Shown here: positions 1-15,311 of the stretch, one piece after another
Numbering within the stretch: the first letter of the stretch is position 1
Layout: each line of letters opens with the position of its first letter
IMG/VR virus record: IMGVR_UViG_2703718829_000001
Strand: one strand, 5' to 3'
DNA from: a virus
Taxonomy: Duplodnaviria > Heunggongvirae > Uroviricota > Caudoviricetes
DNA: 15,311 nt
Program-made: the position numbers and the translations under genes
Notes under the pieces: model-generated
Told to the model about the DNA's origin: nothing
The model's input: only the letters and a program-made list of their open reading frames with translations
Databases searched by the model: none

Positions 1-1642
1 TATTACGTGGGTAGGATCAAGTTCTTATGAACGCCAGAAGAGAACAGCCGCAGAGATAGCCGCAAAATATGATCTTGAGCTAGTTACAAGCTATCAGGAT
101 TTTGGTGTATCTGCATTCAAAGGGGCTAACAGTAGAACAGGTGCACTATCTCGCTTTCTGGATGAGATTGGTCGATCCGTTCCGGTTGGTAGCTGGCTGG
201 TTGTGGAAAACTTAGACCGTATCTCTCGCCAATCCATCATTGAAGCACAAGAGCTATTTCTCTCGATTATCCGTAGGGGAATAACTATCGTAACTGGCAT
301 GGATGGTAAGGTCTATAGCAAGGAATCGGTTAATGCCAATCCTATTGATTTGCTGTTGAGTGTCATGTTGTTTGCGAGAGCTAACGAGGAAAGTCAGACT
401 AAGCGCAATCGTACTAACTCAAGCGCATTGATTAAGATTAAAGCTCATCAAGAAAATCCACAAAATCCGGCTGTTGCAATCGAGGAAATTGGAAAGAATA
501 TGTGGTGGACTGATACCACATCTGGTTATGTGCTTCCTCATCCGGTCTTCTTCCCTATTGTTCAGGAAGTTGTGGAATTACGCAGGAATGGACGGTCAAC
601 CGCCGAGATACTGGATCACCTTAACGCGACATACACACCACCACCAGCCGCAAGTCACAAGAGGCATTCAAACTGGTCACGGGCAATGATTGAAAGGTTG
701 TTCCATACCCGCGCTTTGATTGGTATCAAGGAAATCTCTGTAGATGGCGTTAAGTATGAGTTAAAGGATTATTATCCTCGTGTGCTAGATGACGCTGAGT
801 TTTATCACCTTAAGAAAAGCATTGGTGTTAGAGCATGTAACTATGGAGACAAGGAAGAAGTTAAACCTATTCCCTTGCTTAGTGGTGTTGGTCTATTGAA
901 ATGTGAACATTGCGGTTCCGCTATGGTTAAGGTGAAAGGAACTAACAAACGTCCTAACCAATATCGTTATTCATGCGATGCAATGCGCTCTAGTCGTATT
1001 GCATGTGTGCATACAAACTGGAGTTTTCGAGGTGATCAATTAGAGAAAGCTGTATTGCAATTGCTGGCTGATAAAATCTGGATTGCTGAGGATAAGGCTA
1101 ATCCGGTTCCGGCTTTGAAAGTACAGATTGATGAAATATCACGCAAGATTGATAACCTGATTACCCTTTCTGCTATGACAGGAGCAACGAAGGAGCTAGC
1201 CGATCAGATTACTACCCTCAATAGCGAGCGTGAAACACTCTACAATCAAATTAAGATGGCAGAAGAGGAAATGTATTCTGTTGACTCTCAAGGCTGGGAG
1301 AAGCTCGCAGAATTTGATTTAGAAGATGTTTACAACGAGGATCGCATTAAGGTCCGGTTTAAGATTAAGCAAGCTCTAAAACGGATCGGGTGTAGCAGGA
1401 TTGACAAGTACAAAAACTTGTTTGTACTGGAATACATCGATGGCAAGACCCAGAGAGTTGTAATAGAAAATTCAAGAGGACCGAGGAAAGGCCGGATCTT
1501 CGTTGATTTGAAAACTATCAATGATAGACAGATTCTGGAAAGTAACGGGCTTGTTTTGCATCCATGTTTAGACATGCTGACAGATAAGAACTGGAAACCA
1601 GAAGAGGAAATACCAGGTCCATTACAGGAATTTGGAATTTAA
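1..1642 (+). CDS. Large serine recombinase (integrase-type), 5'-truncated at the window edge
   Basis: Frame 2 is open from position 2 to the TAA at 1640-1642; the GTG at 203 in the ORF track is internal. Translation from nt 2 gives ...GSSSYERQ... then ...GSWLVVENLDRISRQ... (nt ~190-225), resolvase-type catalytic-domain motifs, followed by a Cys-rich zinc-ribbon (CEHCGS...YRYSCD...C, nt ~900-1010) and a C-terminal coiled coil. Size and domain order fit a large serine recombinase rather than a small invertase. Only a few N-terminal codons are missing. Confidence 0.85.
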   Translation, partial: ITWVGSSSYERQKRTAAEIAAKYDLELVTSYQDFGVSAFKGANSRTGALSRFLDEIGRSVPVGSWLVVENLDRISRQSIIEAQELFLSIIRRGITIVTGMDGKVYSKESVNANPIDLLLSVMLFARANEESQTKRNRTNSSALIKIKAHQENPQNPAVAIEEIGKNMWWTDTTSGYVLPHPVFFPIVQEVVELRRNGRSTAEILDHLNATYTPPPAASHKRHSNWSRAMIERLFHTRALIGIKEISVDGVKYELKDYYPRVLDDAEFYHLKKSIGVRACNYGDKEEVKPIPLLSGVGLLKCEHCGSAMVKVKGTNKRPNQYRYSCDAMRSSRIACVHTNWSFRGDQLEKAVLQLLADKIWIAEDKANPVPALKVQIDEISRKIDNLITLSAMTGATKELADQITTLNSERETLYNQIKMAEEEMYSVDSQGWEKLAEFDLEDVYNEDRIKVRFKIKQALKRIGCSRIDKYKNLFVLEYIDGKTQRVVIENSRGPRKGRIFVDLKTINDRQILESNGLVLHPCLDMLTDKNWKPEEEIPGPLQEFGI

Positions 1643-1680
1643 GCGGCCTAAATCGACGTATAACGAGCTAAACACTTTAA

Positions 1681-1703
1681 GGGGTACATCTGTACCCCTT
1701 TTT
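1681..1703 (+). terminator. Intrinsic terminator after the recombinase gene
   Basis: GGGGTACA-tc-TGTACCCC perfect inverted repeat (1681-1698) followed by TTTTT (1699-1703), 39 nt after the stop. It sits between the convergent gene ends at 1642 and 1716. Confidence 0.6.
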
Positions 1704-1715
1704 AATTTAATTGTA

Positions 1716-2714
1716 TTAAAGAGCCTCTAAAGGGCTTAAATCGAGTTCTAAGTCTTCTGGTGTTAAATCAGCTAACGGTGCATTCATCCACTGCGATAAA
1801 TCTCGTTCTATGTCTTCATCACTAATGTAGTTGTTCAGATTGATTGCGTTGGTATCATCAAAATACATTGGCTTAGATGGGTTGGTGTGGATGTATTCAT
1901 TGATGAATGATTTAACATCTTTCAGCTTGCTAATCGGTAGCGTTTCTGTGAATCCGCTATTCATTACCTTACGTGGAATTTTCTTGCCCTGAATATTCTT
2001 TTTAATCCCCATTTCTAAATCACCAGCTTTCCATCCAATGTTAAACAAATGTGAGCATTCAAAGGTGATTTTCTCGCTGGTGTGCTTCTGGTGTTCTCTT
2101 ACCCGTTGCATCGGATCTTTGCGAGTGGTAATTCCATATTTGAAAAACTTCTCGCCAACACGAATTAGATAAAAGTGCATAGGGCGCTGTGCAAACTTGT
2201 TTCTGATAACCTGTTTTCTACCATTCTGAATTGATTTAAGTACACCCCTAACCAAAGGGCATGTTAACCCGCCTTGTCTGCGGTTATTGTGTAAATCACC
2301 TTTCTTGTGAATCTTTCCGTGGCACTTACAACGAAGAATTAGTTTAGTGTCAACACCCTGATAAGGTTCAGCCAGACCTAACACATCCCACCCTATCGGC
2401 TTGTAGAACTTGCGAGCGTTTTCTAAGTGTTCTTCTTCGGTAAATCTAAACTTCTTCTTAGGCGGTGATACTCTATCTTTGCCAGTAAACTGACCAGTTA
2501 GAACATGACTAATACATGGCGTTTTAACCTTTCCGTTAACTTCTATGCAAACTTTGGTGTTCTGGAATGGTTTCTTTACAGGAAGCACAAAACCACTGTA
2601 TAACCACCCATGCACTTGACAAACTTTAATGATTCTGGTTTCATATTCGACCGGAGGGGTCGCACGTTTGCTTTTTGTGGTAAATTCGATATCCTTTGCT
2701 AAAGTAGTATTCAT
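1716..2714 (-). CDS. GIY-YIG / T5orf172-like domain protein with a Cys/His-rich N-terminal half (putative nuclease or DNA-binding protein)
   Basis: 332-aa ORF with ATG at 2714 and a GAGGA Shine-Dalgarno about 8 nt upstream. The C-terminal half contains HFYLIRVGEKFFKYGITTRKDPMQRVREH, which fits the GIY-(10-11)-YIG-...-R-..-H/E pattern of GIY-YIG and T5orf172 domains. The N-terminal half has Cys/His clusters (CQVHGW, CKCHGKIH...C) suggesting a zinc finger. Family assignment is by pattern only. Confidence 0.5.
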   Translation of the reverse strand: MNTTLAKDIEFTTKSKRATPPVEYETRIIKVCQVHGWLYSGFVLPVKKPFQNTKVCIEVNGKVKTPCISHVLTGQFTGKDRVSPPKKKFRFTEEEHLENARKFYKPIGWDVLGLAEPYQGVDTKLILRCKCHGKIHKKGDLHNNRRQGGLTCPLVRGVLKSIQNGRKQVIRNKFAQRPMHFYLIRVGEKFFKYGITTRKDPMQRVREHQKHTSEKITFECSHLFNIGWKAGDLEMGIKKNIQGKKIPRKVMNSGFTETLPISKLKDVKSFINEYIHTNPSKPMYFDDTNAINLNNYISDEDIERDLSQWMNAPLADLTPEDLELDLSPLEAL

Positions 2715-2749
2715 AGTAGTGTCCTCGAAAATAATAAGTTCACTACTAT
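2714..2749 (-). promoter_or_regulatory. 9-bp perfect inverted repeat ATAGTAGTG / CACTACTAT spanning the start region of the T5orf172-like gene, with a third direct copy (AGTAGTA) inside the first codons
   Basis: Arms at 2714-2722 and 2741-2749 with an 18-nt spacer containing the GAGGA Shine-Dalgarno. A related copy lies at 2703-2709. No T-run follows, so it is not a terminator; it could be an operator or an RNA structure over the ribosome-binding site. Confidence 0.3.
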
Positions 2750-2758
2750 TTATAAGAA

Positions 2759-3130
2759 TTAATTATTGTAGTTTTGGAAGCCAGTAAGATCGCAAAATGA
2801 ATCAGTGTCATGTGCTGGGGAACGATGCTCTGCTTCGTCGGAGAAAATGTTGGATACCGGAGATTCCACTTTAACTTCCGGTGCTTCTTCAACATCTGAC
2901 TTAACTTCTTCGACCACTGGTTCAACTGCTGGAGATTCTTCTTTTGTTTCTTCAATGACGATCTCAGGTTCTTTCATTGCTTCAACCAGAGACGGATCAA
3001 CTTCGTCGAATACCACTTTATCATCTGCGGTATATTTGTCTATAATGAAAAAATGGTCAGAAATATAGCTAACGTCGCCAGCATATTCTAACAAAAAAGC
3101 GCCCACCAGAGGCGCTTTTGTTTTATCCAT
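2759..3130 (-). CDS. Highly acidic hypothetical protein (Glu/Asp/Pro/Val-rich C-terminal half); start codon uncertain
   Basis: ORF ends with TAA at 2759-2761. Candidate starts are TTG at 3160 (overlaps the upstream gene by 38 nt, no Shine-Dalgarno), ATG at 3130 (Shine-Dalgarno-like GGTGGA but no spacer) and ATG at 2977 (72 aa). The terminator hairpin at 3099-3115 lies inside the two longer versions, so the real protein may be the short form. Translation is strongly acidic (EEPEIVIEETKEESPAVEPVVEEVKSDVEEAPEVKVE...). Confidence 0.4.
   Translation of the reverse strand: MDKTKAPLVGAFLLEYAGDVSYISDHFFIIDKYTADDKVVFDEVDPSLVEAMKEPEIVIEETKEESPAVEPVVEEVKSDVEEAPEVKVESPVSNIFSDEAEHRSPAHDTDSFCDLTGFQNYNN
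3093..3116 (-). terminator. Intrinsic terminator downstream of the peptidase M15 gene
   Basis: On the minus strand: AGCGCC-ucuggug-GGCGCU stem-loop (3099-3116) followed by UUUUU (3093-3097), starting 7 nt after the stop at 3123. An A-run on the other side makes it formally bidirectional. Confidence 0.55.
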
Positions 3131-3476
3131 TCCACCGTGATTTTTTTGATCTGGAATCAATATGCGTAAAGGTTTTATATTTTCCTAAGCCGTATTGAGT
3201 AGGATATTTCCCATCAAGATAAGCATGAACAATATCAGGTGAGACACCCTTGATAACAATGTCAGCCGCACGGCCTCGAACGTGATAGCTGTTGGTTGCA
3301 CCGCCTACATTCTTGTTATGAGTCGGGCAACGGTTGCCACTGTTAATAATTACTGGTTTCCCGAAGTGTTCGCGTACATCCTCAAGAATCACCAGTAATT
3401 CAGCGTCGATTGTATCATAATCACATTTTCCGCATTTACATTTAAATTCCTTGCGAGAAAAATGCTTACTTAACAT
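3123..3476 (-). CDS. Peptidase M15 family protein (zinc D-Ala-D-Ala carboxypeptidase-like); putative endolysin or cell-wall hydrolase
   Basis: 117-aa ORF with ATG at 3476 preceded by TAAGGGGGTAAT. The translation FSRKEFKCKCGKC...GKPVIINSGNRCPTHNKNVGGATNSYHVRGRAADIV matches the small peptidase M15 (YcbK/DUF882-like) pattern SG.R....N...GG...S.H..G.A.D. Confidence 0.75.
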   Translation of the reverse strand: MLSKHFSRKEFKCKCGKCDYDTIDAELLVILEDVREHFGKPVIINSGNRCPTHNKNVGGATNSYHVRGRAADIVIKGVSPDIVHAYLDGKYPTQYGLGKYKTFTHIDSRSKKSRWNG

Positions 3477-3485
3477 ATTACCCCC

Positions 3486-3833
3486 TTAGATCATTTCGAA
3501 GATATAACCAATAAAGCGCATACCCTTGATATAATAAGGAGCAGTGCCTACACACACCGCGCGTGCATCACCCAGACAGTTAAAGCTATAAGGATTAACT
3601 ACATCGACTTCTTGTCCTACACGAAAACGATATTTAGGACGTTTAGCCAATGTAGCGACACAAAACACGGTCCCTTTTTCATGATCGCGGATACATTCTT
3701 TATATTGTTTATGTTTAACTCTCTTCGCCTCAAAATCATGTGTCATAGATTCTGGGCTAATGCCATTAATAAAAATACCGGAAAGCTGATCGACCGGATA
3801 AGTAGGAAATTCAGTGAAAATATTTTTAGCCAT
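3486..3833 (-). CDS. Hypothetical protein (115 aa)
   Basis: ATG at 3833 with a GGGGG Shine-Dalgarno 7 nt upstream; TAA at 3486-3488 sits next to the Shine-Dalgarno of the following gene. No family recognised. Confidence 0.7.
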   Translation of the reverse strand: MAKNIFTEFPTYPVDQLSGIFINGISPESMTHDFEAKRVKHKQYKECIRDHEKGTVFCVATLAKRPKYRFRVGQEVDVVNPYSFNCLGDARAVCVGTAPYYIKGMRFIGYIFEMI

Positions 3834-3836
3834 GTT

Positions 3837-3864
3837 ATACCCCCATAAGTTTCTATGAGGGTAT
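3837..3864 (-). promoter_or_regulatory. RNA stem-loop burying the Shine-Dalgarno of the 115-aa gene (copy 2 of a recurring motif)
   Basis: Minus-strand RNA reads AUACCCUCAUA-gaaacu-UAUGGGGGUAU, an 11-bp stem with one G-U wobble. The 3' arm contains the GGGGG Shine-Dalgarno, with the AUG at 3833 three nt past the stem. It starts 8 nt after the upstream stop at 3872. The same core recurs at 10590-10627. Confidence 0.45.
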
Positions 3865-3871
3865 TTATGGA

Positions 3872-4555
3872 TTAAACGTATTTCATGCGCGATTTAATGT
3901 GCTTATTGATGTTTTCAAGCATCATTGCTTCGTTGCTTTCCCACGATCCTAGCGTCGAATAACGAGTAGAAATTTTATCCGACTTAACGGCAACAATTCG
4001 CTTACTCTGTTTCTGGATGCGTTTCTCTAAGCGACGTTTTGCCACCGCCGATCCATTCCTAGCGCGTTTGGTTCGGGATTTCTTAGGCTTGTACTTCTTC
4101 ATGATAAAAGTCCCTTCCTTGTTCTCTACCTTGATGAAGTTGCCGTTTTCGATGTTACGCATCATCTTACCGCCTTTGATGGCCTTAATGTTCCCGTGGG
4201 CGTCTAAGACCTTACCGTTGGCGATTGGAACTAGCTTATTGATTTTGCCCCCATCGAAATAGTGTTTCAGATAGTCGTCTTGACTGCCGATCTTCTTGTC
4301 CTTATCCCTTGCGCCCTTGATGAAGATTTGGTGTCTCGTCCCTGATCGGTTCTTGTAGTTGGTATTACCTACAGCTTGTTGAGTCCATCGAGTAGGTCTA
4401 TCAACATTCTTGTTAATCTTCTTCTGTAGTGCACGAGCAGCAAAGATCGCCCCTTCCCCTAGTGCCCTTTCGAATGTATCGGTTGCTTTATCAGTCCATT
4501 GGCGTAACGCTTTCTTAGTCCTTAGAGCGTTTCGTTTATTGGTACTGGTTGCCAT
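3872..4555 (-). CDS. Lys/Arg-rich basic hypothetical protein (227 aa)
   Basis: ATG at 4555 with a GGGGG Shine-Dalgarno 5 nt upstream. The translation is very basic throughout, especially the C-terminal third (KKYKPKKSRTKRARNGSAVAKRRLEKRIQKQSKR). No family recognised. Confidence 0.7.
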   Translation of the reverse strand: MATSTNKRNALRTKKALRQWTDKATDTFERALGEGAIFAARALQKKINKNVDRPTRWTQQAVGNTNYKNRSGTRHQIFIKGARDKDKKIGSQDDYLKHYFDGGKINKLVPIANGKVLDAHGNIKAIKGGKMMRNIENGNFIKVENKEGTFIMKKYKPKKSRTKRARNGSAVAKRRLEKRIQKQSKRIVAVKSDKISTRYSTLGSWESNEAMMLENINKHIKSRMKYV

Positions 4556-4556
4556 G

Positions 4557-4727
4557 TTAGCCCCCTAATAACGAAAAGACCCCCGCCAGTGTCCTTAGCA
4601 ATTGTTCATCCACGGTCATAGCCGGGAGTTCAAGCCCAAAGGACGTTAGCAGAGGTCTAATTGCTACGTTATAAGTGAGGGCGATAATCAAGAGATAACC
4701 AAAATATTTCTTAAGTTTATTCTTCAT
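4557..4727 (-). CDS. Small hydrophobic protein (56 aa, no Cys), not in the ORF track; candidate membrane protein
   Basis: Hand translation from ATG 4727 gives MKNKLKKYFGYLLIIALTYNVAIRPLLTSFGLELPAMTVDEQLLRTLAGVFSLLGG, ending at TAA 4557-4559. An AAGGGGTG Shine-Dalgarno lies 6 nt upstream. The stop is 1 nt from the next ATG at 4555, suggesting translational coupling. Confidence 0.5.
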   Translation of the reverse strand: MKNKLKKYFGYLLIIALTYNVAIRPLLTSFGLELPAMTVDEQLLRTLAGVFSLLGG

Positions 4728-4745
4728 ATATTCACCCCTTTATTA

Positions 4746-5024
4746 TTATTTTTGTTTGAGTATGTCGAGAACTTGGTCAAATTTGGCGTCCATCGCAACC
4801 ACTTTCTTTTCTATACCGTGAAGGGTTTGTTCCATGCGATAAACTCTCTCGGCGATCTGGTCATGGTTACTTTGCATTGTTTCAAACTTCTGATTAAACA
4901 ATGCATCATTGGACTCTAATTTCGACAATCTATTTTCTGTGGCTAATTGATTTCGGTGGAGTCTCCAAAGCCCACCACAAATTAAGGCGATAACACCGAT
5001 ACCGCCATATATAATTTCAGTCAT
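4746..5024 (-). CDS. Small membrane protein: N-terminal transmembrane helix plus coiled coil (92 aa)
   Basis: ATG at 5024 with a GGGGGCG Shine-Dalgarno. The N-terminus (IIYGGIGVIALICGGLW) is hydrophobic, followed by a charged heptad-like segment. Topology resembles an i-spanin, holin/antiholin or superinfection-exclusion protein; function is not assignable from sequence. Confidence 0.7.
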   Translation of the reverse strand: MTEIIYGGIGVIALICGGLWRLHRNQLATENRLSKLESNDALFNQKFETMQSNHDQIAERVYRMEQTLHGIEKKVVAMDAKFDQVLDILKQK

Positions 5025-5065
5025 TACGCCCCCGATATTTTTATAATTTCATGGCAGAATTATTT

Positions 5066-5110
5066 AGATAAAAATAATCCCGCCTAACTCAAAAGAATTA
5101 AGCGGGATTA
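5066..5110 (-). terminator. Possible terminator or attenuator after the central tail fibre gene
   Basis: 8-bp inverted repeat AATCCCGC (5076-5083) / GCGGGATT (5102-5109) with an 18-nt loop. On the minus strand it is followed by AUUUUUAUCU, 19 nt after the stop at 5128. The long loop lowers confidence. Confidence 0.35.
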
Positions 5111-5127
5111 ATTATTAGAATTAAATT

Positions 5128-8100
5128 TTAAGAAACAGAAATACCAGTCGCGGCTTTCTTAGTAACAATTACAGAAAGATCGCTGATCCATGTGCTGGGA
5201 GTCCAGTTGTTGATTGCGCTTGAACTTACTTCAAAAGTTAGCGTAACTGGTCCGTGTCCGGCTGGCATATCAATAACAGCACTATACAATCCAGTCTGTC
5301 TACCATATGCACGGTTATATAATTCAGCACCGTTCTTGCGAACAATCAAGCGACAGTTATCATAGTAAGTATTGTTATTCGAGCCTTCACGCGCATTAAG
5401 ACCACCAAAGCTAATAGCCGGAACGATAATCTGACGATCAAACGGGTGATCATCTTCAATTCGAACAGTGATTGTACCTTGCGGATAACCGGGATAGCCC
5501 AATGATGGGTTTTCGTCCCAATGTGGGAATCGACGACCAATAGCTTTCACGAAGTCACCACGCACCTGATTAGCATCAAGCATACCCAAAATGCGGCAAC
5601 TTGAATTAATCGTTACGTTGTTCATTTCGCCGGAATCAGCCACCAAATGACCACGAATATTAGCGTGTCTAAAATGACAAGTGCCATCTTTGCCGATATA
5701 CCATCCATCGTTACCATTCCAGTTATAAGACTGGATATAGTTACCAATTTTAGCATTATCGATAGAGCCATCAATGATATGACCTGTTCCGATCTGTGCG
5801 TGTTGGATGTGAGCGCCGTTAATCTGGGCTGTGCCGATTTTAGCCGTGGTGATACTAGCATCACTAATCTGGGCTGTGCCAATTGCAGCATTACGAATCA
5901 TCGCATTATCGAGATAAACTTTGTTATCTTCGATACCAAACGGGCATACTTCCGATCCGTTCTGTGGAGCTACCGCGATTTTATCAGCCGTAAAGATGAT
6001 TCTCGTCGGTTGCGCCGGATCATTGGTTGCGCTCATATGAATACCAGCCACGCGACCATCTGCATTAACTGCCAGATTATATTTGCTGTTAATGGTTCCC
6101 TTCAAAGCATCGATCTTAACGTCAGCTTCCTGATTCACACCAGCAATCTTGCCATCCATTTCTACCCGAACTTGGTCGATCTTACTTGCGCTTGCTGCCT
6201 CACTGGTAGCAATTGCTTGTTTCAGGGTAGTAGCAGATGCGCTAACTTCATTGGTGATATCGCCTTTCAGTTCAGCCTTAACCTGATCAATCTTAGTGGA
6301 GCTGGCTTGCTCACTGGTAGCAATCAGACTCTTAAGGGTATCGGCTGAGGCTTGGACCGTCTTTCCGGTTTCGGTAGTGATTTGCTTATGCATTGCATCA
6401 ATCTTAGCATCGGCATTAGCGCCAGCTTGAGCAATAGCATCCGCGATGGTTTCATCTAAGCGATCTTGTAAACCAATCAGGTCTTCCAGTGCTTCTTTGT
6501 CCTGATCGTCCCAACTAATGGTAGATTTCATTTGCATGAAATACGGTTCAGACCAAACAGCATCATCCATACCGAAAATATCGTAGTGAGCACCACGGAT
6601 ATAATAATCACCGTCAGCCAAATCAAAGGAAGTATGACTAACGCTATTGGTAGTCACTGCCCTTGCATCTGAGAAAGTGTTATCGGTTGCATACTGGATG
6701 ATTGACCCTGCATAGTCATGTTCTACGTCATCCGCCCAGCTAACAAACGCAGTATTAAAGCCACCACGCGCACTAAAACCTTTCATCGGCTTATGTTGTG
6801 GGTTAATAGCCACTAAACGCGCTGGGGCGCTCTCTGAGTTGTTATAGCCCTTGACTGATACTTCTACCGTCAATTCACGGGAAAGGCCGTTAAACTGGTT
6901 CATATCAAGCGTATAGGTCCATGATTCAGGATCGCGGGTACGGTACTGAATAGACTTACCAGCCTTGTTAGTTACCTTGATAATGTATGCTTCAAACAGG
7001 TCACTAAACTTGTTAGTTTCACCGTTGATAACCACATCTAATTGTTGCTGATTTTCCCATTCGATAATCAGATCATTGCCTTCGAAAGTACCAGGTGAAC
7101 TACCCTGATTTTTGATGCGGATCACTGGAGTAGGCAGTTCATAGGTAACTTCTGGATTCTGGTTAACCAGTTCCACCCATTCGGAACGAGCAATAATACC
7201 GAAAGCACAAACGCGATAATCGTAGGAGCGATCTTTTGCCAGTGCATTGATATTGAAAATTTGCTGTGAAGTCTGTCCCAGCTTAATCCAGTTAGGTGAT
7301 CCACTCACACGATAATCAATCTGGAAACCGTAGCGGTTAAAATCTTCCGGTGCGTCCCATGTCAAAGTTACGTTTTTACCGTGGATTGTCTCACCAGTTG
7401 CCTTAATTCTGAAATTAGTCGGTTTCTGTACTGTCATTGAATCCGGTAAACCGGTAGGTCTATTGTCTGGAGTCGCCGCATAGTTCAGGTCAGTATAAAC
7501 CTGAGAATTATATTCTGTGGCGGTGATAGTCATCATCCCAGCAATACCAGAATCAATCGAGCGATCAATTGCAGTAATGCGCCAAAGTGAATTATTCAGT
7601 TTCAATTCATCATAGGTAACGCTAATAACATCCCACACTTCGGCAGTGAATGCGTCAGTAGTCATGAAGCTGATAACCTGAGTGATACGAGATTTATTTC
7701 GCTCAATGCTCGCGAGTTTATCAATCTGGGCTTTAGACTTAACAAAACGATATTCAATATCTTTAGCGATAATTCGACCATCTTGACGAATAGTAGCATC
7801 GTTTTCAGCATCAGCCGGATAACGTAGCATTTGCTCGGAATAGTCAATTGATGGTTCTTGATACATCGCGTTAATGGTATTGAAATAACCGTTAGTGCCA
7901 CCTGTTTTCAGTGATACTTTACCCATCATAATATTGTCTTCATTGAAGGTATGCTTAACAATATCAGGAGCATCCAGTTTCAGGGTAATTCTTCCGAAGG
8001 ATTCGAACATTACCCCGCCGAAAGTCTGCATAAGGCTAGTCAAGTTCTCTTTAAAGCTGGCGTTCGGATCACATGCACCGTTTGAATGCAAATCCATCTG

Positions 8101-8904
8101 GCGTACTTGCTTACGTACTTTCAGGAATGAATCAACGTTAATGTTTTCAATTGGTACTGATAGACCATATTTTTCATTTGTTAGGTAATGGAAAATCTGG
8201 TCCACGCCGTTAGTGCTAGCCTCAATAGCATTGGTTTCGAGGTTACGGATTTTTAAGCCCATAACATCGACCGCTACCTGGCTATTAGGCTGGAGAATAT
8301 CAACACCAGCAGCCAAAGATTTGTCATCACGACGTAAAACAATACACATGGTCGCAATGCCGTTACCCTGATACCGATCATCCCAATCAGCGCCCAAATG
8401 ATGTTTAGCAAGATCTAATGCAGTGTTAGGATTTTTACCCGTGCGAAACTCGACTTCTAACACTTTGCGATATTCGTCTTTAATGTTTCCTTTATCGAGA
8501 ATACCATCACGAATTGTCATATTCTGACTAATGAGAACGTTTTTATTATCGATGTGCAGTGCTTTAAAGTGATCGATCTCACCTTCGGCAATAGCAAAAA
8601 TTTGTACCAGTTTGTTATTTTCACGCTGTGAAATTGCTTTGTAAACGCAGATTGCACCAGTTCGGGTAGTACCGAAAAGAACGGGTAATACTGTCTTAGG
8701 ATCGTTTGATGTTCCTAGTGTCACCGCATTATCCGGGCTTTGTACTTTCGGTGTTTTTGGTGCGCCTACAGTGGAAGCAATCAAGGTCATTGCACCAGCA
8801 GCCATACCGATAGCGACTGCGGTCATAACAGAAAATGTTGCAGCAGCAGCCATCCCAGCAGACGCACCAGCAATAACCGCGCCTACCAATACTTCAAATC
8901 CCAT
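5128..8904 (-). CDS. Central tail fibre / tip attachment protein J-like (host specificity protein) with a gpI-like N-terminal segment
   Basis: 1258-aa ORF with ATG at 8904 and a GGGGGTG Shine-Dalgarno. The N-terminal ~100 aa are a Gly/Ala-rich hydrophobic stretch followed by APKTPKVQSPDN...VLPVLFGTTRTG, resembling the C-terminal half of lambda tail assembly protein I as recalled. The C-terminal ~120 aa (…DDHPFDRQIIVPAISF…DMPAGHGPVTLTFEV…KKAATGISVS) closely resemble the C-terminus of lambda gpJ as recalled. Internal coiled-coil and IGTAQI-type repeats are present. Confidence 0.88.
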   Translation of the reverse strand: MGFEVLVGAVIAGASAGMAAAATFSVMTAVAIGMAAGAMTLIASTVGAPKTPKVQSPDNAVTLGTSNDPKTVLPVLFGTTRTGAICVYKAISQRENNKLVQIFAIAEGEIDHFKALHIDNKNVLISQNMTIRDGILDKGNIKDEYRKVLEVEFRTGKNPNTALDLAKHHLGADWDDRYQGNGIATMCIVLRRDDKSLAAGVDILQPNSQVAVDVMGLKIRNLETNAIEASTNGVDQIFHYLTNEKYGLSVPIENINVDSFLKVRKQVRQMDLHSNGACDPNASFKENLTSLMQTFGGVMFESFGRITLKLDAPDIVKHTFNEDNIMMGKVSLKTGGTNGYFNTINAMYQEPSIDYSEQMLRYPADAENDATIRQDGRIIAKDIEYRFVKSKAQIDKLASIERNKSRITQVISFMTTDAFTAEVWDVISVTYDELKLNNSLWRITAIDRSIDSGIAGMMTITATEYNSQVYTDLNYAATPDNRPTGLPDSMTVQKPTNFRIKATGETIHGKNVTLTWDAPEDFNRYGFQIDYRVSGSPNWIKLGQTSQQIFNINALAKDRSYDYRVCAFGIIARSEWVELVNQNPEVTYELPTPVIRIKNQGSSPGTFEGNDLIIEWENQQQLDVVINGETNKFSDLFEAYIIKVTNKAGKSIQYRTRDPESWTYTLDMNQFNGLSRELTVEVSVKGYNNSESAPARLVAINPQHKPMKGFSARGGFNTAFVSWADDVEHDYAGSIIQYATDNTFSDARAVTTNSVSHTSFDLADGDYYIRGAHYDIFGMDDAVWSEPYFMQMKSTISWDDQDKEALEDLIGLQDRLDETIADAIAQAGANADAKIDAMHKQITTETGKTVQASADTLKSLIATSEQASSTKIDQVKAELKGDITNEVSASATTLKQAIATSEAASASKIDQVRVEMDGKIAGVNQEADVKIDALKGTINSKYNLAVNADGRVAGIHMSATNDPAQPTRIIFTADKIAVAPQNGSEVCPFGIEDNKVYLDNAMIRNAAIGTAQISDASITTAKIGTAQINGAHIQHAQIGTGHIIDGSIDNAKIGNYIQSYNWNGNDGWYIGKDGTCHFRHANIRGHLVADSGEMNNVTINSSCRILGMLDANQVRGDFVKAIGRRFPHWDENPSLGYPGYPQGTITVRIEDDHPFDRQIIVPAISFGGLNAREGSNNNTYYDNCRLIVRKNGAELYNRAYGRQTGLYSAVIDMPAGHGPVTLTFEVSSSAINNWTPSTWISDLSVIVTKKAATGISVS
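5819..5888. repeat. Short periodic repeat inside the fibre gene (TAATCTGGGCTGTGCC(G/A)ATT, two copies about 48 nt apart)
   Basis: Near-identical 20-mers at 5819-5838 and 5867-5886. They encode the repeated (A)QI(G/S)(T/D)A-type peptide units (IGTAQI...) in the fibre shaft region. Confidence 0.45.
6171..6350. repeat. Degenerate ~105-nt tandem repeat (two copies) inside the fibre gene
   Basis: The blocks at ~6171-6240 and ~6276-6350 share the core CTCACTGGTAGCAAT and flanking similarity. The protein shows a matching 35-aa repeat (ASADTLKSLIATSEQASSTKIDQVKAELKGDI / ASATTLKQAIATSEAASASKIDQVRVEMDGKI). Confidence 0.5.
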
Positions 8905-9323
8905 TATTCACCCCCGAATCTATAAACTTGTTCATAGTCAATGTCTGAAACAGGAATGGTCATCCAGATACCATCTTCTTCAACGAGGCCATAACCGGAA
9001 TAATGAGGAACTACGGAATAATATTTGCGGTTTCCTAATTTGTGGGCTGTGACCAGTAAGTCGCCGTCCTGTAAGTCATCAGTGACTAATTTGAAATGTT
9101 TCTTAATTGGTTGAAGGATATTTGAATACCCGCTTAATTCTTTGCAGATTTTCAAGCCTTCTTCTTTAGTTGAATATTTTTTATAAAGAGAATTATATAG
9201 GTCAGTACCAGCGAGAATATCGATGATCTTACATGCAATGAGATTGCAATCATTCTCGCCTTGAACGAACTCCTGACCTATTAAAGAATTGATATAATCG
9301 GTGATAAGCCTAGTTTTTAGCAT
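8904..9323 (-). CDS. Minor tail protein, gpK-like with NlpC/P60-type motif (about 140 aa)
   Basis: Start chosen at ATG 9323 (MLKTRL...) with a GGAGGT Shine-Dalgarno 6 nt upstream. The longer ORF-track version (start 9479) would overlap the upstream gene by 110 nt. NDCNLIACKII ... DGDLLV ... H motifs resemble the C-terminal NlpC/P60 half of lambda gpK as recalled. The stop overlaps the fibre ATG (TAATG). Confidence 0.6.
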   Translation of the reverse strand: MLKTRLITDYINSLIGQEFVQGENDCNLIACKIIDILAGTDLYNSLYKKYSTKEEGLKICKELSGYSNILQPIKKHFKLVTDDLQDGDLLVTAHKLGNRKYYSVVPHYSGYGLVEEDGIWMTIPVSDIDYEQVYRFGGE

Positions 9324-9369
9324 GTTGAATACCTCCATGCAGTTATTTACTAGGCTTAGGGAGAAGGGA

Positions 9370-10023
9370 TTATTTCTTCGATGAATGCCACTTGCTTTCT
9401 GAGTTCCACTTCCCGGCACGGGAGAAGAATAGATCGTTCTCGTTTCCAACATAGGATCGGTGGATACCATCGGAGGCATGACTACGAGCGTTTTTATCTA
9501 GAACTTCCCAGATACTATTAAGCTGAAATTCTGATTCGTTTTTACACTCATCATCTTCATGTTCGATGTTAATCCCGATGGAATCGACTACCCCACGGAA
9601 AACAGGGTAAGTGGTTTCAACCTTGCCCGTGTTAGGGTTCAGGAACACCATTTCGATTTTCACATCAGATTTATCGAATTGCTTGTTTCGAATCAGGGTA
9701 ATGTATTCCTCGCGAACGTTAGAAACGGTTACGTTAATCCCGTTGTTGTTGATCTCCTTCTCTTCGGTATTCGATGAGATTTGAAGAAAATCACCCGTTG
9801 CGAGATATGTAAATCCGTTATAGTCCAAATCGAAATACCCATCTGTAAGCCGTAGAACGTCCCCTGACGCTGTTATCACTTCGATAATGTGAAACATCGA
9901 TCCAGTAGAAAAAAGCTGCGGTAGCGTCAATCTAGACACGTTCTGACCTGTCTGGTCGTTGTAGACCTCGATGAAGTCCAGATTAGTGCATAGTTTGCTG
10001 AATGATTCCTGAATAGTTGCCAT
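9370..10023 (-). CDS. Minor tail protein (gpL-like position), about 217 aa
   Basis: Start chosen at ATG 10023 (MATIQESF...), which overlaps the stop of the upstream gene (ATGTAA-type coupling). The ORF-track N-terminal extension to 10077 is rejected. Assignment rests mainly on position between the M-like and K-like genes; the Cys content is low. Confidence 0.55.
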   Translation of the reverse strand: MATIQESFSKLCTNLDFIEVYNDQTGQNVSRLTLPQLFSTGSMFHIIEVITASGDVLRLTDGYFDLDYNGFTYLATGDFLQISSNTEEKEINNNGINVTVSNVREEYITLIRNKQFDKSDVKIEMVFLNPNTGKVETTYPVFRGVVDSIGINIEHEDDECKNESEFQLNSIWEVLDKNARSHASDGIHRSYVGNENDLFFSRAGKWNSESKWHSSKK

Positions 10024-10583
10024 TATACATTCTCCACTAATTCGAATTTCATCTTGCCAATCTGGGCGATCTTCCAATCGATATTTTCAGTTTTGAGAAC
10101 AAATTCGCCTTCTACGTTTTGATACTTGATCACCTCACCCGCCAGGACGTTCTGACGCAAGTTAGGGAAGAGTTTCATTTCACCACCTGATTTCACGTCT
10201 TCGGTGATCGTGTAGATTTTCTTGTGGTTCTCAAACTGGATGACAGTTCCCGCTTTCAGTGTTCCGGTGAAGTTGGAGAGTCTTACCTTGCGTCCACCGC
10301 GAGCAGTACCAGCAGCAGCCGTAACCATCTGGCGTACATCACCTGTATATTTTGAAAAGTAAGACAGTGGCACACTGAAAGGACGACCAAAAAGGTGACG
10401 TGCTACAAATTCTTTTACTTCGTTAATATCCTGAGCCATGAAATTAGCTGTAAATTCTGCTTCATAAAAATGAATGCCAGTAAAGCGACGTTGAAATTTA
10501 CCAGAAATAGATTGTGCCTTGAAGAAAGGCTGTTTTGATTTAAGAGTAAAATCTGTGATTTTAATATTCTTGGATTTGAACAT
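10023..10583 (-). CDS. Minor tail protein (distal tail / gpM position), 186 aa
   Basis: ATG at 10583 with a GGGGG Shine-Dalgarno 6 nt upstream, first gene after the tape measure gene. Assignment by synteny; no sequence motif recognised. Confidence 0.6.
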   Translation of the reverse strand: MFKSKNIKITDFTLKSKQPFFKAQSISGKFQRRFTGIHFYEAEFTANFMAQDINEVKEFVARHLFGRPFSVPLSYFSKYTGDVRQMVTAAAGTARGGRKVRLSNFTGTLKAGTVIQFENHKKIYTITEDVKSGGEMKLFPNLRQNVLAGEVIKYQNVEGEFVLKTENIDWKIAQIGKMKFELVENV

Positions 10584-10589
10584 AGAAAA

Positions 10590-10627
10590 GCCCCCATAGT
10601 TTTATGATTATTTATCACTATGAGGGC
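10590..10627 (-). promoter_or_regulatory. RNA stem-loop burying the Shine-Dalgarno of the first minor tail gene (copy 1 of a recurring motif)
   Basis: Minus-strand RNA reads GCCCUCAUAGU-(16-nt loop)-ACUAUGGGGGC, an 11-bp stem with one G-U wobble. It starts 6 nt after the tape measure stop (10634). The 3' arm carries GGGGG, and the AUG at 10583 lies 6 nt beyond. Flanked by A4 and U4. Confidence 0.45.
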
Positions 10628-10633
10628 TTTTAA

Positions 10634-13063
10634 TTACATCTTACGGCGCTGTGCGTCTTCTACCGCCTGAGCAACTAACTTAGCGTGACGTTTGATAGCA
10701 TCCATGACCATCTTGTCTGAGCTATTAACGTTGCCGTTAATGTTCAAAGGCGCATTAACTTCAATCGGCTGAGAGTTGCCACCGCCTGATTTTTGAGCAG
10801 CAAGGAAGTCTTTCAAATCACCGTTAGTACGCTGATCAACTACTCGTTCACCCTTATCAAGCAACCATGTACCCTCACGAGGGATGTTATCAATACCATC
10901 ATGAGCCATACCGCTAACGTTAGTAGACTTGATGTTTGCGATGCTCCCCATGTTCTGAGAAACAGCCAATGCAGCAGCCGCGATTTTTTGACCTGTGGTT
11001 ACGTTGGTCGGATCGTTCCATGCATCGGTAGCAGCCGTCCACATGTTCACCGTCGCTTGTCCAATGGAGAATGCTTTATGAGCAGTGAAAGCCATCTGCA
11101 TAGCTTTAGTGTTTTCCTGCCCGAAGAGAGTCATTGCAGCAGCAAAACCGCCATACATATCATCGGCTATTGACTGTCGAGCATCAGCATATTTCTTCTC
11201 AATTGCAGCCATTCGTTTTTGATGGTTTTCATTGAGTTTTTCTAATGCTTCCATCCGTTTAGCCGGATCATTAATACCGTCAATCTTGAGTTTATCGGTT
11301 TTATAATCTTGTTCCGCTTCCGATTTCTCTTTATCGATTGCATTAAATTTAGCAAACGGGTTATTTGAATCCTGATAGTCTAAGCTATTGGTCAACTGAT
11401 TGGTTTTAAAACCATCCATTCCCTGTAAAGAATTTTCAATCTGAGAATAGTTTTGCTCGGTATCGTTCACACGACGCATATATTCTTCGTAGGAGATAGC
11501 TTTACCATCAAGTAACCGTTTATGGCTTTCTAGCTCGTTGTCCCTTATTTGTTGCAATTGTGTTAAGGCATTCAAAGCATCAACCGGATCAGCACCTAAA
11601 ACCATTTTGTATACGTTTTCAGTATTCTGATCGATTAAGGATTGGCGTTTCGCGGCTGCGTCTTGCTGAGAGATTAAGCCCAGATCTAAAGCAGTGTCCA
11701 AATCTTTCAAGCTGGCTTCTAACTGCTTGTTCTGAGAAGCAATAGACGCGGCGACCTGCCCTTGCAATTTAACATCAAGTGCATTCAGACGCTTGATTGC
11801 ATCCTCACGTTCTTTCTGTGCTTTTTCTGCGGCTTCCTTAGCCTTTTTAGCTGCCTCTTCCGCTTTCTTGCGTGCTTCTTCTTCGGCTTTCTTCTCATTG
11901 CCAGACTTACCCAATGATTCTGGTCTTACTGGTTTATTTGGTATAGTCAAATCACGGTTAGGATCTGCCTTGCGAGTTAGATGTTCCCCGTTATCGACAA
12001 CAATCAGAGAGCCATTTTTCTTATAAGAATCACCAAAACGTTTCTTAAATCCTTCAACATCAAAGCCAGCAGTACGAGGATCGACACCAGCACCACGGAT
12101 CGCGGCCTTTTCCCAATCTGCCAGATTATTCCAACGCTTTTCTTTATTGTACTTGTCAATAATTTTTTGAGCGTCTTTATGGTTGGCGTTAAGAATACCG
12201 CCAGTTGCGGTCTTGCCTTCTTTATTCAGTCGATCTAATGCCCTGAATAGAGAACTCTTTTCCCAATCAATATTAAACCAGTCAAATAACCAGTTTAAAC
12301 TATCAACCAGCGGACCAGTAATGGTCATGCCGACCCCTTTCAGGTTATTTTCCAGCTTATTGATATTTTGAGAAAATTTATCATATTTTTTAGCGTTTTC
12401 TTCGGTGACGTTAACAGATTGATTCTGAATAGCGATCATCGCCTCTTGAGCACTATTATATTTCTCAAGCTGGCTGGTCATATGGCTTGAATCACTGGCT
12501 AAAGATTCCATCATGAACTTGATTTCAGCCATTGATTTTCCGGCTTTCTTCATGTCATAGAACACTTGGATCGCCGCTTTCATACCACCTTGCGGATCTG
12601 TCATGAAGTGAGCATAGTTTTCTAACTTAAGACCAACCGATTCTAAGTCATCAGCAATACCACCACCATTAGCCCACGCATCACCCATTTTATCTAAGGT
12701 GTCTTTGTTGATATCGCCAAATTTTTCAACTGTTAGGCCAGTGCCAGAAAATTCCTTTTCTAGTCTTTGAAGGGATTCAATCGAGAGTCCGGTCGCCTTA
12801 GATACTTCTGAATACTGTTTAACGTATTCCGCGCCAGCTTTAGCGGCTGCAACCACTGCGGTCGCAACTAAGCCGATACCACCAGCAGCCAAACCAGCAG
12901 AGCCAGCGATCCCACGAAGAGATCCAGTCAGACCAGATAAGCCACCACCAAAATCAATATTACTTGCCTTTTCAGACAAACGATCGAGAAGGTCGGCGGC
13001 TTCATTGGTACTTCTCCTTAGACCTTTATTATCCCCTTCTATTGTTACTATATGTCTTGTCAT
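10634..13063 (-). CDS. Tail tape measure protein (809 aa)
   Basis: Large ORF directly downstream of the chaperone pair, with ATG at 13063. It has a Gly-rich hydrophobic N-terminal segment and a long Lys/Glu/Ala-rich coiled coil (KKAEEEARKKAEEAAKKAKEAAEKAQKERED), typical of tape measure proteins. By the rough 0.15 nm per residue rule the tail would be about 120 nm. Confidence 0.88.
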   Translation of the reverse strand: MTRHIVTIEGDNKGLRRSTNEAADLLDRLSEKASNIDFGGGLSGLTGSLRGIAGSAGLAAGGIGLVATAVVAAAKAGAEYVKQYSEVSKATGLSIESLQRLEKEFSGTGLTVEKFGDINKDTLDKMGDAWANGGGIADDLESVGLKLENYAHFMTDPQGGMKAAIQVFYDMKKAGKSMAEIKFMMESLASDSSHMTSQLEKYNSAQEAMIAIQNQSVNVTEENAKKYDKFSQNINKLENNLKGVGMTITGPLVDSLNWLFDWFNIDWEKSSLFRALDRLNKEGKTATGGILNANHKDAQKIIDKYNKEKRWNNLADWEKAAIRGAGVDPRTAGFDVEGFKKRFGDSYKKNGSLIVVDNGEHLTRKADPNRDLTIPNKPVRPESLGKSGNEKKAEEEARKKAEEAAKKAKEAAEKAQKEREDAIKRLNALDVKLQGQVAASIASQNKQLEASLKDLDTALDLGLISQQDAAAKRQSLIDQNTENVYKMVLGADPVDALNALTQLQQIRDNELESHKRLLDGKAISYEEYMRRVNDTEQNYSQIENSLQGMDGFKTNQLTNSLDYQDSNNPFAKFNAIDKEKSEAEQDYKTDKLKIDGINDPAKRMEALEKLNENHQKRMAAIEKKYADARQSIADDMYGGFAAAMTLFGQENTKAMQMAFTAHKAFSIGQATVNMWTAATDAWNDPTNVTTGQKIAAAALAVSQNMGSIANIKSTNVSGMAHDGIDNIPREGTWLLDKGERVVDQRTNGDLKDFLAAQKSGGGNSQPIEVNAPLNINGNVNSSDKMVMDAIKRHAKLVAQAVEDAQRRKM

Positions 13064-13446: not shown

Positions 13447-13755
13447 TTACTTTACCTCGTTTTCAATTACTGCCGGATCTTGCATCAATGATGCTTGAGC
13501 AACCAAACCGATTAATTCACTTCGAACGTTAGTATACAGTGCCTTAACTTGTTCCATAGATTCAAATACTGGCTTGCCGTCTTCATCTTCAATACAACGA
13601 AGAATAGAACGTTCATCACGGTCTTCTTTATCAGTATTGAAAACATGTTCATTAAATTCTTTTACTGACATAGGGCGAGCATAGAAAGTGAATCCACCGA
13701 TGGTCAAAGATTCGCGTTTCGGAGAGAGTGCGGCTAACATTTCGTTAATATTCAT
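13447..13755 (-). CDS. Tail assembly chaperone, gpG-like (102 aa)
   Basis: ATG at 13755 with a strong AGAGGAAA Shine-Dalgarno. Small acidic protein immediately after the tube gene and its terminator, the canonical position of the G chaperone. Confidence 0.6.
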   Translation of the reverse strand: MNINEMLAALSPKRESLTIGGFTFYARPMSVKEFNEHVFNTDKEDRDERSILRCIEDEDGKPVFESMEQVKALYTNVRSELIGLVAQASLMQDPAVIENEVK

Positions 13756-14308: not shown

Positions 14309-14362
14309 TATTCTTTTCCTTCTATTTTAAACAATAGGGCACATACCCGTAATTCTATTTAT

Positions 14363-14665
14363 TTAGCGGTTGCTCAAACGTCTATAACGAAGATGAGCGA
14401 CCCCCCTATTTGTGCTAACGGTAATTACCGCCCCTTGCGGTGCAATACAAGAATGAATCTGTCCCCAATCATGACCCTTATGACTTCCAGACACACAAAA
14501 GCCATGCAAAAGCAATTCTGAGTCACCACCGCCACCACCAGAAGAACTAGCACCAAATGAAACCGTACCGAAAGCGTCGGCTGTCCAACCGTTAGGAATA
14601 TCAAACCATCCCTGATTAGCTTTACCGGCTTTATTGTCTAAAACGCCATACACCCAATATCCCAT
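14363..14665 (-). CDS. Glycine-rich small protein, paralog 3 of 3 (100 aa), function unknown
   Basis: ATG at 14665 with an AGGAG Shine-Dalgarno 9 nt upstream; the start overlaps the stop of paralog 2. Shares MGYWV, WFDIPNGW, a poly-Gly run and a basic/aromatic C-terminus with its two neighbours. Confidence 0.7.
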   Translation of the reverse strand: MGYWVYGVLDNKAGKANQGWFDIPNGWTADAFGTVSFGASSSGGGGGDSELLLHGFCVSGSHKGHDWGQIHSCIAPQGAVITVSTNRGVAHLRYRRLSNR

Positions 14666-14970
14666 TAATGCATTCTCCTAAATTGGAAGTGGTTTAAACT
14701 TCCTTTACCAATGCTAAAACTGACAGTAGCACCAACACCAACTAAAGAACTAGCTCCCCAACTTCCGGCATTACCAGCGTGATGACCTGATTCGAGAGTA
14801 CCGTTTACATATAATTCGGCGTCCAAGTCACCTCCACCGCCAACGGCTTCGGCATGAACAGACACAATACCGCATGAATCCGTCACCCAACCATTAGGGA
14901 TACCAAACCAGCCGCCATTAGCATAAATGCTAATAGCATTAGCCATTCTTCCAGCAACCCAACCAGCCAT
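14665..14970 (-). CDS. Glycine-rich small protein, paralog 2 of 3 (101 aa), function unknown
   Basis: ATG at 14970 with a GGAG Shine-Dalgarno 8 nt upstream; 2 nt after the stop of paralog 1. Motifs MAGWV, WFGIPNGW, GGGG. Confidence 0.7.
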   Translation of the reverse strand: MAGWVAGRMANAISIYANGGWFGIPNGWVTDSCGIVSVHAEAVGGGGDLDAELYVNGTLESGHHAGNAGSWGASSLVGVGATVSFSIGKGSLNHFQFRRMH

Positions 14971-14972
14971 AA

Positions 14973-15269: not shown

Positions 15270-15311
15270 TTAAGATCCTTAGCGGGGATTTCTCCCATAA
15301 GCGCTAACTTA

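Follow-up and report, generated by a model that had tools for sequence, protein, structure and literature searches.

Conserved late genes and a possible homing-endonuclease-type recombination hotspot between the tail-tip and recombinase genes of an Escherichia coli prophage

What lies between the last tail gene and the integrase of a temperate phage, dispensable cargo or part of the core genome? The question is raised by positions 1716–5024 of a 15,311-nt viral sequence (IMG/VR record IMGVR_UViG_2703718829_000001; hereafter the window, meaning this whole stretch), where seven small open reading frames (ORFs) on the minus strand lie between two terminators. A preliminary description made from the sequence alone had taken this block for an accessory region. 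The seven ORFs were all confirmed with their coordinates and properties, as were the bracketing terminators, namely a strong terminator-like hairpin after the upstream 1258-amino-acid gene and the terminator of the recombinase gene. The proposal that the block is variable and accessory held for approximately 1643–3122, which carries a gene with a GIY-YIG/T5orf172-like domain, and failed for 3123–5024, which is conserved. We propose that the block consists of two parts, the end of the late operon (3123–5024) and a homing-endonuclease-type recombination hotspot (1643–3122), an explanation to which we assign a probability of about 0.55. At the level of sequence comparison, the gene content, the pattern of conservation and variability, the GIY-YIG fold of a 332-residue product, the origin of a T-even phage fragment within the block and the phage-to-prophage direction of its import are established here.

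The window is part of a chromosomal E. coli prophage, temperate and siphovirus-like, with a gene transfer agent-like tail and a serine recombinase. When the whole window was compared with 5,426 complete E. coli genomes, 60 had a matching chromosomal prophage, and in 44 the match covered at least 80% of the window at 90–98% identity; no cultured phage matched from end to end. In the relative PE15, a complete prophage of ~40 kb integrated in hicB, the gene order is terminase, portal, capsid, long side tail fibre, tail tube, tape measure, DUF2163 and DUF6950 proteins, the 1258-residue protein, the block and a terminal 559-residue serine recombinase. The 1258-residue protein, previously called a fibre, is a tail-tip (J-like) protein (Pfam Phage_Tail_Tip in relatives) and not a side fibre. 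A truncated recombinase was suspected from the ORF list and ruled out, because the frame is open starting at base 2 and the gene simply continues beyond the left end of the window; the PE15 orthologue starts ~57 nt upstream of the window's aligned start.

Gene maps of the block were compared among nine E. coli relatives, together with contigs of Salmonella, Proteus and further E. coli found by way of nuclease homologues. Among relatives that share the tail module, the content between the endolysin and recombinase genes differs and the variation is confined to 1643–3122, while 3123–5024 is kept in content and order. Separating the two is an intrinsic terminator (3119–3093) that had been overlooked in the preliminary description; it begins four bases past the endolysin stop codon, and homology with relatives carrying different cassettes picks up again at 3089. 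This terminator is the boundary between conserved and variable DNA, and the two parts of the block have different histories. A search of positions 1–5600 against Rfam at a permissive threshold returned only sub-threshold chance matches, and a repeat search found nothing beyond the terminators and a hairpin upstream of the nuclease gene.

The region 3123–5024 is the core end of the late operon and is not accessory. Its genes encode, in order of transcription, proteins of 92, 56, 227 and 115 amino acids and an M15 endolysin, and this order was the same in every E. coli relative examined and identical in the Salmonella, Proteus and further E. coli contigs. The 1.9-kb module is present in 55 E. 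coli genomes, full-length in 53 of them, at 94–99% and mostly 95–99% identity, and compared one by one with the nine relatives its genes are 87–100% identical. All five have a GGGG(G) Shine–Dalgarno sequence 6–8 nt ahead of the start codon, a feature shared with the tape-measure and tail-tip genes (every late gene checked, window 3486–13063). The nuclease gene has GAGGA, which is unlike the late genes and fits a different origin. Content and order of the five genes are thus conserved across relatives, as would be expected of core genes, although not all five match well-characterized proteins.

The endolysin matches PF08291 over its full length (1–108 of 108) and also the endolysin family PHROG 894 (E 2e-45). 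The zinc-ligand motif residues H65, D72 (SYHVRGRAAD) and H105 (FTHID) are seen in the sequence; a MepK-like NCBIfam match was sub-threshold, and NCBIfam added nothing else. In the complete PE15 prophage this is the sole lysis enzyme annotated. Both membrane proteins at the start of the module are conserved in the Salmonella and Proteus relatives, and each retains its hydrophobic, transmembrane segment there. For that protein the coiled-coil matches in Pfam and PHROG were sub-threshold only, and a lysis-associated membrane protein is our working guess; for the 56-residue protein, which had no family match in Pfam, PHROG, NCBIfam or PADLOC, a holin-like role is a candidate by inference only. The 227-residue protein lacks a Pfam match but links to PHROG 1924 and the HK97 gp10 fold, a relationship the preliminary description had not recognized, and an exhaustive profile search yielded just 12 relatives. 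It is probably a virion protein of the neck or tail completion type with an HK97-gp10-like fold. Unlike the HK97 gp10 neck and tail completion proteins (80alpha/SaPI1 neck, PDB 9mu2), it is twice as long and has a Lys/Arg-rich insertion, and its gene follows the tail-tip gene, whereas genes of the HK97 gp10 family lie in the head–tail joining cluster. Clusters of the 115-residue protein all come from E. coli, Salmonella or Providencia and none is annotated; the Proteus copy aligns. This protein had no match in PDB, Pfam or PHROG, and a PDB sequence search gave nothing usable for either it or the 227-residue protein. The most likely role of the module as a whole is host lysis plus a virion or assembly function.

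Downstream of the boundary terminator each group of relatives carries a different cassette. The fullest (L013, Salmonella L010 and UTME-12) contain, on the opposite strand, uvsW.1 (missing in some), a gene for a UvsW helicase of 496–501 residues and a nuclease gene of ~188 codons, followed on the recombinase side by a nuclease gene of 331–394 codons. UTAK-14 has uvsW only. In ETEC1717 and EC24 the cassette comprises a 332-codon nuclease gene, a 415-bp piece of the T-even gene inh and an intact 193-codon gene, and in UTME-9 the 332-codon gene is followed by inh joined straight to the tail of uvsW.1 (inh 3001–3468 fused to uvsW.1 5297–5349 in coordinates of the Krischvirus locus, where the ETEC1717 piece is inh 2947–3361). 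In the window the 332-codon gene is intact, inh is represented by 256 bp and the second nuclease gene by 57 bp. That remnant is 96% identical to L008 4487–4543, the 3′ end of the ETEC1717 coding sequence 3962–4543, which encodes a 193-residue protein with CapR plus a T5orf172-like domain. The 193-residue coding sequence is annotated as a GIY-YIG nuclease in EC24 and its CapR match is above cut-off; the 185- and 193-residue proteins of relatives have the CapR domain and an N-terminal motif in common with the 332-residue protein. In relatives, the sister nuclease gene lies directly upstream of uvsW. Judged by their sequences, the cassette of the window and the others would most simply be deletion derivatives of one composite cassette.

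In 14EC017 nearly all of the cassette has been lost and a small lipoprotein ORF gained. Here a 258-nt insert after the recombinase stop codon (L006 4094–4350) holds an unannotated ORF of ~85 codons with a lipobox, MKMIKILGLILSMNSC..., which could be an exclusion-type lipoprotein moron.

The inh fragment identifies one source of the variable DNA. It is an internal piece of the Krischvirus gene for the inhibitor of prohead protease and is 98.4–98.8% nucleotide-identical to ~48 Krischvirus (RB49-like T-even) genomes, with the protein alignment agreeing on the residues. A full-length inh with its own start and stop is not present; the fragment is 35% of the gene and its flanks are unrelated. Its boundaries vary among prophages, falling at 2947 or 3001 on one side and at 3256, 3361 or 3468 on the other (Krischvirus locus coordinates). 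The ORF for an ‘acidic protein’ listed in the preliminary description without a family corresponds to Inh residues 84–169: it starts inside the endolysin terminator hairpin, crosses the scrap of the 193-codon gene in antisense, joins the inh frame and stops five codons beyond the end of the inh homology. The corresponding ORFs in relatives are 65, 72, 85, 147, 148 and 162 codons long. Because starts, stops and lengths differ in this way, the acidic ORF is most likely a remnant and not a gene. Compared with Inh of the RB49 group, codons 84–169 are 98.8% nucleotide-identical to the fragment, which is without conserved start or stop.

To place this fragment in the wider population, the Krischvirus hoc-inh-uvsW region was used as a query against the 5,426 E. 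coli genomes. Matches were found in 33, of which 16 were via inh, 16 via uvsW and one via the unrelated uvsY; in all genomes with an inh or uvsW match that were opened, the match was located at this prophage site. The inh fragment is missing from most prophages of the family. In PE15 the inh piece is 97.5% identical to Krischvirus G5211/MIZ6 and only 79% to the window allele. PE15 and the window have the same deletion junctions, and their inh alleles each match a different Krischvirus group, at 97.5–98.8%. The prophage uvsW is 57–78% identical to that of Krischvirus outside one 500-nt patch and is an old homologue of it. In UTME-12 and UTAK-14 the patch is 99–100% identical to Krischvirus; the sister allele in L013 is without it and is 61–87% identical to UTME-12 over that interval. 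Because different inh alleles share junctions and the uvsW patch is absent from a sister allele, these sequences show repeated import of Krischvirus DNA, in the direction from phage to prophage. Krischvirus DNA has unmodified cytosine. Upstream of the tail tube gene, a further stretch of the window (14362–15296) holds three short genes on the minus strand that are 92% nucleotide-identical to three genes of Krischvirus G2248. In that phage they are flanked by the long tail-fibre gene and the holin gene t, which suggests a tail-fibre accessory cassette common to temperate and lytic phage. T-even and temperate coliphages have long been known to exchange tail-fibre genes.

At the recombinase side of the variable region lies the gene for the 332-residue protein, which has a GIY-YIG fold and belongs to a small CapR-zinc-finger/T5orf172 family. 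The protein matches PHROG 681 ‘endonuclease’ (E 7e-20), and tblastn recovered a phage T5 ORF annotated ‘endonuclease’ or ‘RB49ORF238c-like’, along with weaker copies in genomes of Krischvirus. At the same site in UTME-12 is a 391-residue allele with which it shares 27% identity (E 3e-19); this allele matches MUG113 above cut-off (3.7e-6), T5orf172 (1.5e-3) and CapR above cut-off. CapR was above cut-off in the relatives of 391, 394, 185 and 193 residues and was also listed for P0014–P0018. The family is tiny, comprising 18 clusters at 90% identity among 5.8 billion, all from Enterobacterales prophages. Throughout 18 sequences with identity down to 24%, residues Y182, K192, (Y/F)193-G194, R204, E234, E257 and T258 are invariant, as is the cysteine cluster C129, C131 and C152; by analogy with I-TevI, the conserved residues are assigned putative catalytic roles. 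An acidic tail, PLADL(E/T)PEDLELDLSPLEAL, which is conserved in alleles that are otherwise divergent, occupies the C-terminus (window 1716–1790) and is predicted to be disordered; it may be a short docking motif. The annotation ‘hypothetical protein’ would be better replaced by GIY-YIG/T5orf172-type nuclease.

The gene was found in 18 E. coli genomes, always at 98.7–99.7% identity, and its flanking module in 55. It is present or absent at a fixed site in collinear genomes, and some of the empty sites are deletion scars; in UTAK-14 the coding sequence is gone almost exactly from ATG to stop, with the 5′ untranslated region and terminator kept. Several carriers have an adjoining recombinase gene only 87% identical. 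Horizontal spread of the nuclease allele was considered from this difference (99% against 87%). The neighbouring conserved module is also 96–99% identical, and the identity of the nuclease allele is therefore only weak evidence for such spread.

Immediately upstream of the nuclease gene is a possible control region. The box TATAAATA lies 32 nt ahead of the ATG and occurs once in the window, and a hairpin in which AUAGUAGUG is paired to CACUACUAU(G) takes in the start codon and has a free energy of −13.1 kcal/mol (z −3.6); the bases after the box pair with CACUACUAUG, start codon included. Across 12 alleles, Proteus included, the box and 5′ arm vary little or not at all. Homing endonuclease genes of T4 often use a late promoter inside a hairpin that hides the translation start, such that only late transcripts are translated (PMC2988022). 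By analogy, the [T/A]ATAAATA box with its start-codon hairpin is a lead towards a T-even-style control region. A perfect TATAAATA is also found in relatives ~41 nt upstream of small genes preceding the recombinase (L002 14418; L005 2060; L013 9458). This would sit just past the left edge of the window, and the spacing resembles that before the 332-codon gene.

Coordinates of these features are collected in Table 1.

Table 1. Features of the block and its borders (window coordinates).
Feature	Position	Strand	Basis or detail
Large serine recombinase (prophage integrase), 5′ end beyond window	2..1642	+	Open frame; Recombinase and Zn_ribbon_recom Pfam matches
Serine recombinase terminator, left edge of variable region	1679..1700	+	9-pair G+C-rich stem, then T run
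332-residue free-standing homing-endonuclease-like protein	1716..2714	-	Cys-cluster N-terminal modules, C-terminal GIY-YIG/T5orf172-type domain, acidic tail
Upstream control region of nuclease gene (lead)	2708..2754	-	TATAAATA box 2754–2747 plus hairpin
‘Acidic protein’ ORF, most likely a remnant	2759..3160	-	Chimeric open frame: terminator, nuclease-gene remnant, inh fragment
Internal Krischvirus inh fragment, codons 84–169 of 241	2776..3031	-	256 bp
Remnant, last 57 nt of second nuclease gene	3035..3091	+	96% identical to L008 4487–4543
Intrinsic terminator right after endolysin stop	3093..3119	-	AAAAGCGCC-TCTGGTG-GGCGCTTTTTT; inverted repeat I9
M15 zinc peptidase endolysin, last late-operon gene	3123..3476	-	Peptidase_M15_3 PF08291, E 1e-27
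115-residue conserved protein of this prophage family alone	3486..3833	-	17 clusters
227-residue Lys/Arg-rich protein	3872..4555	-	56 Lys+Arg, isoelectric point 10.7
56-residue basic hydrophobic protein, one transmembrane segment	4557..4727	-	Hydropathy
92-residue protein, N-terminal transmembrane segment and coiled coil, first module gene	4746..5024	-	Hydropathy; GGGGG Shine–Dalgarno
Terminator-like hairpin after tail-tip (J-like) gene	5075..5110	-	16-pair stem, then T run; inverted repeat I3

According to the proposed explanation, double-strand breaks at or near the locus would be made by resident nucleases or by those of a co-infecting phage, and would be repaired by copying homologous DNA in the cell, including that of a superinfecting Krischvirus genome. 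Repair of this kind would explain the 97–100% identical patches and the cassette-like replacement of one nuclease allele by another while the 5′ and 3′ flanks stay conserved; swapped alleles, converted patches and scraps would be the leftovers of exchange. The control region would be designed such that only transcripts starting at the box are translated. The locus provides a concrete and testable case of exchange between lytic and temperate phages, a 1.4-kb site bracketed by homing-endonuclease-type genes at which the imported genes are those flanking the SegE site in T4. Were the nuclease active, the locus would tie homing endonucleases to the movement of genes between lytic and temperate phages, and possibly to lysogen protection as well. 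For annotation, the five upstream genes are to be treated as core late genes and not as cargo, and the ‘acidic protein’ is not to be called a gene.

Several observations weigh against this explanation. For the 332-residue protein we infer nuclease activity, target and a homing or defence role. The protein itself had no GIY-YIG, T5orf172 or MUG113 match in Pfam at E<=0.1, and its CapR match was weak (E 0.014) and below cut-off. Sites without the nuclease retain scraps of its gene, and the polymorphism therefore arose at least partly from loss. No close homologue of either the 332- or the 193-residue nuclease was found in 50,697 phage records, where the best were 24–35% and 28% identical, respectively, and none was located at inh/uvsW; transfer into Krischvirus was therefore not observed. 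As for the control region, one TATAAATA was observed in the window against a chance expectation of 1.1, and the majority of alleles have AATAAATA in its place. The perfect box, considered as strong evidence of a T4 late promoter, was downgraded to a lead on both counts, and a reading as the −10 element of a sigma-70 promoter fits equally well. Among 12 alleles 92.6% of hairpin cells were paired with no compensatory change, leaving the hairpin therefore unsupported beyond sequence conservation, and it is broken in ETEC1717. Within the late module, the 92- and 56-residue proteins had no holin or spanin match in Pfam, PHROG or NCBIfam, and a search of the minus strand at 2700–5130 found no lipobox ORF and no spanin candidate; their role in lysis is a guess from position beside the endolysin.

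The description from which the analysis started, in which the whole 3.3 kb is a lambda-b-like non-essential region carrying moron, exclusion, defence or anti-defence genes, now appears improbable, and for 3123–5024 it is largely refuted. The block does lie between the tail genes and the integrase with terminators on both sides, and four of its products lack an above-threshold match in Pfam, NCBIfam or PADLOC. Moreover, the recombinase-proximal part resembles the lambda b region and moron hotspots in being beside the integrase, truly variable in content among relatives and home, in one of them, to a small lipoprotein ORF. Yet five of the seven genes are conserved in content and order over three genera, at 94–99% identity within E. 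coli, use the translation signals of the tail genes and include the only annotated endolysin. Searching PADLOC-DB 2.0 gave no match for six of the seven block proteins and no defence system. Even the variable region differs from the lambda b region, since it spans only ~1.4 kb in the window and holds nuclease genes and T-even-derived DNA, not recognized defence or exclusion genes. Less likely still is that the acidic ORF is a working truncated Inh, a decoy that would act against the Krischvirus prohead protease and block head maturation. None of the variants interrupts the Inh frame, and every fragment spans the acidic central part, but an open frame is expected anyway at 98–99% identity to a live phage gene; the ORF varies in start, stop and length from relative to relative, in the window it starts in a terminator hairpin without a recognizable ribosome-binding site, and most members of the prophage family lack the fragment.

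The main rival concerns the nuclease gene, which could be a domesticated anti-phage weapon. It would be silent in the lysogen since read-through transcripts hide the start codon, and the late transcription of a superinfecting T-even phage would switch it on, so that the phage DNA would be cut and lysogens or the prophage protected. We consider this doubtful: PADLOC offers nothing beyond two weak PD-Lambda-1 matches to 22–44 residues of the nuclease domain (E 0.005–0.007, 13–14 bits), two thirds of the prophages lack the gene, with scars marking its loss, and the box that would act as the switch is no commoner than chance predicts and can also be read as a sigma-70 −10 element. Somewhat less likely than the weapon is that the locus is neutral debris, fragments left near the prophage end by illegitimate and homologous recombination with co-infecting phages, its nuclease-like genes being either passengers without activity or regulators that bind DNA, in the manner of the satellite protein CapR. 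Such an origin suits the inh piece and the 57-nt scrap, which are clearly non-functional, and the many different deletion derivatives, and CapR shows that proteins of this type can lose nuclease function (PMC10448857). Against it, the cysteine cluster and Y182, R204 and E257, which have putative catalytic roles, are invariant over alleles only 24–85% identical, the 332-codon allele is 98.7–99.7% identical though the adjoining recombinase gene is 87%, and the imports are concentrated at exactly this locus, two of them retracing the neighbouring phage genes inh and uvsW. A bolder extension of the homing-endonuclease-type explanation, which we hold as tentatively as the weapon, is that the cassette is adapted to lytic T-even phages. 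Translation of the nuclease would depend on transcripts begun at its T4-late-type box, and so on a Krischvirus in its late programme, and the enzyme would cut the invader in or near inh–uvsW. The prophage copy would serve as template for mending the phage break, or the phage copy for the prophage, and the result would be a homing-endonuclease system acting across the lytic/temperate divide, serving defence or the harvest of competitor genes (uvsW patches, tail-fibre cassettes).

Other features of the prophage family were observed alongside the block. Its members are integrated at no fewer than two sites, in hicB and in the ycdX/ycdY region, and these pair with two recombinase alleles that are 97–100% or 87% identical to the window (L002 13605–14944; L004 1143–2412; L010 9940–10841). 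The early region of the PE15 prophage carries a colistin-resistance transposon, ISApl1-mcr-1-pap2-ISApl1 (L015 17817–22470; NZ_CP041628.1 535816–540469). Tail modules of relatives hold more T-even-style insertions (L006 11653–12423; L017 15249–15755), one being a homing-endonuclease-like gene with a NUMOD3 DNA-binding domain between the DUF6950 and DUF2163 genes and another a gene annotated as T-even adhesin Gp38. Finally, a 102-codon ORF at 13447–13755 lies between the tail tube and tape-measure genes, a position that suggests a tail assembly chaperone; the label ‘cytochrome’ given to its orthologue in some RefSeq relatives is therefore probably a mis-annotation.

How does the locus compare with known homing systems? 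The genes inh and uvsW adjoin each other in T-even phages. In T4, segE is a free-standing GIY-YIG endonuclease gene inserted between these two, and its product cuts the uvsW of phages without segE (Edgell et al, 2010, PMC2988022, citing Kadyrov et al, 1997). Like SegE, the 332-residue protein is encoded by a free-standing gene beside inh/uvsW-derived DNA and has a GIY-YIG fold, and the sister nuclease of relatives lies immediately upstream of uvsW with inh DNA on its other side. The near-identical flanking patches are typical of co-conversion, and the late-promoter-like box in a start-covering hairpin also recalls the T4 homing endonucleases. Unlike SegE, the gene resides in a temperate siphovirus-like prophage and not in a T-even genome, its nuclease domain is of the T5orf172 branch with CapR-type zinc-finger modules and differs from the Seg architecture, and the prophage locus is known by sequence alone, with the documented flow of DNA from phage to prophage. 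A second comparison is with the T5orf172 homing endonucleases of ICP1 and other phages, in which zinc-finger DNA-binding modules (CapR/DUF723/DUF4397) precede a T5orf172-type GIY-YIG domain and which mark exchange boundaries between phages (Barth, Dunham and Seed, 2023, PMC10448857). The allele family described here has the same CapR plus T5orf172/MUG113 plan and likewise sits at an exchange boundary between mobile elements, with cassette-like swapping of alleles. It differs in that the 332-residue protein falls below Pfam thresholds and the family is tiny and confined to Enterobacterales prophages; moreover, the exchange partner here is a lytic T-even phage, whereas in the T5orf172/CapR system it is a satellite. 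The parts are thus of known kinds, and what is new is their combination, T5orf172-type nucleases in a temperate prophage seated on T-even inh/uvsW DNA that has been imported repeatedly.

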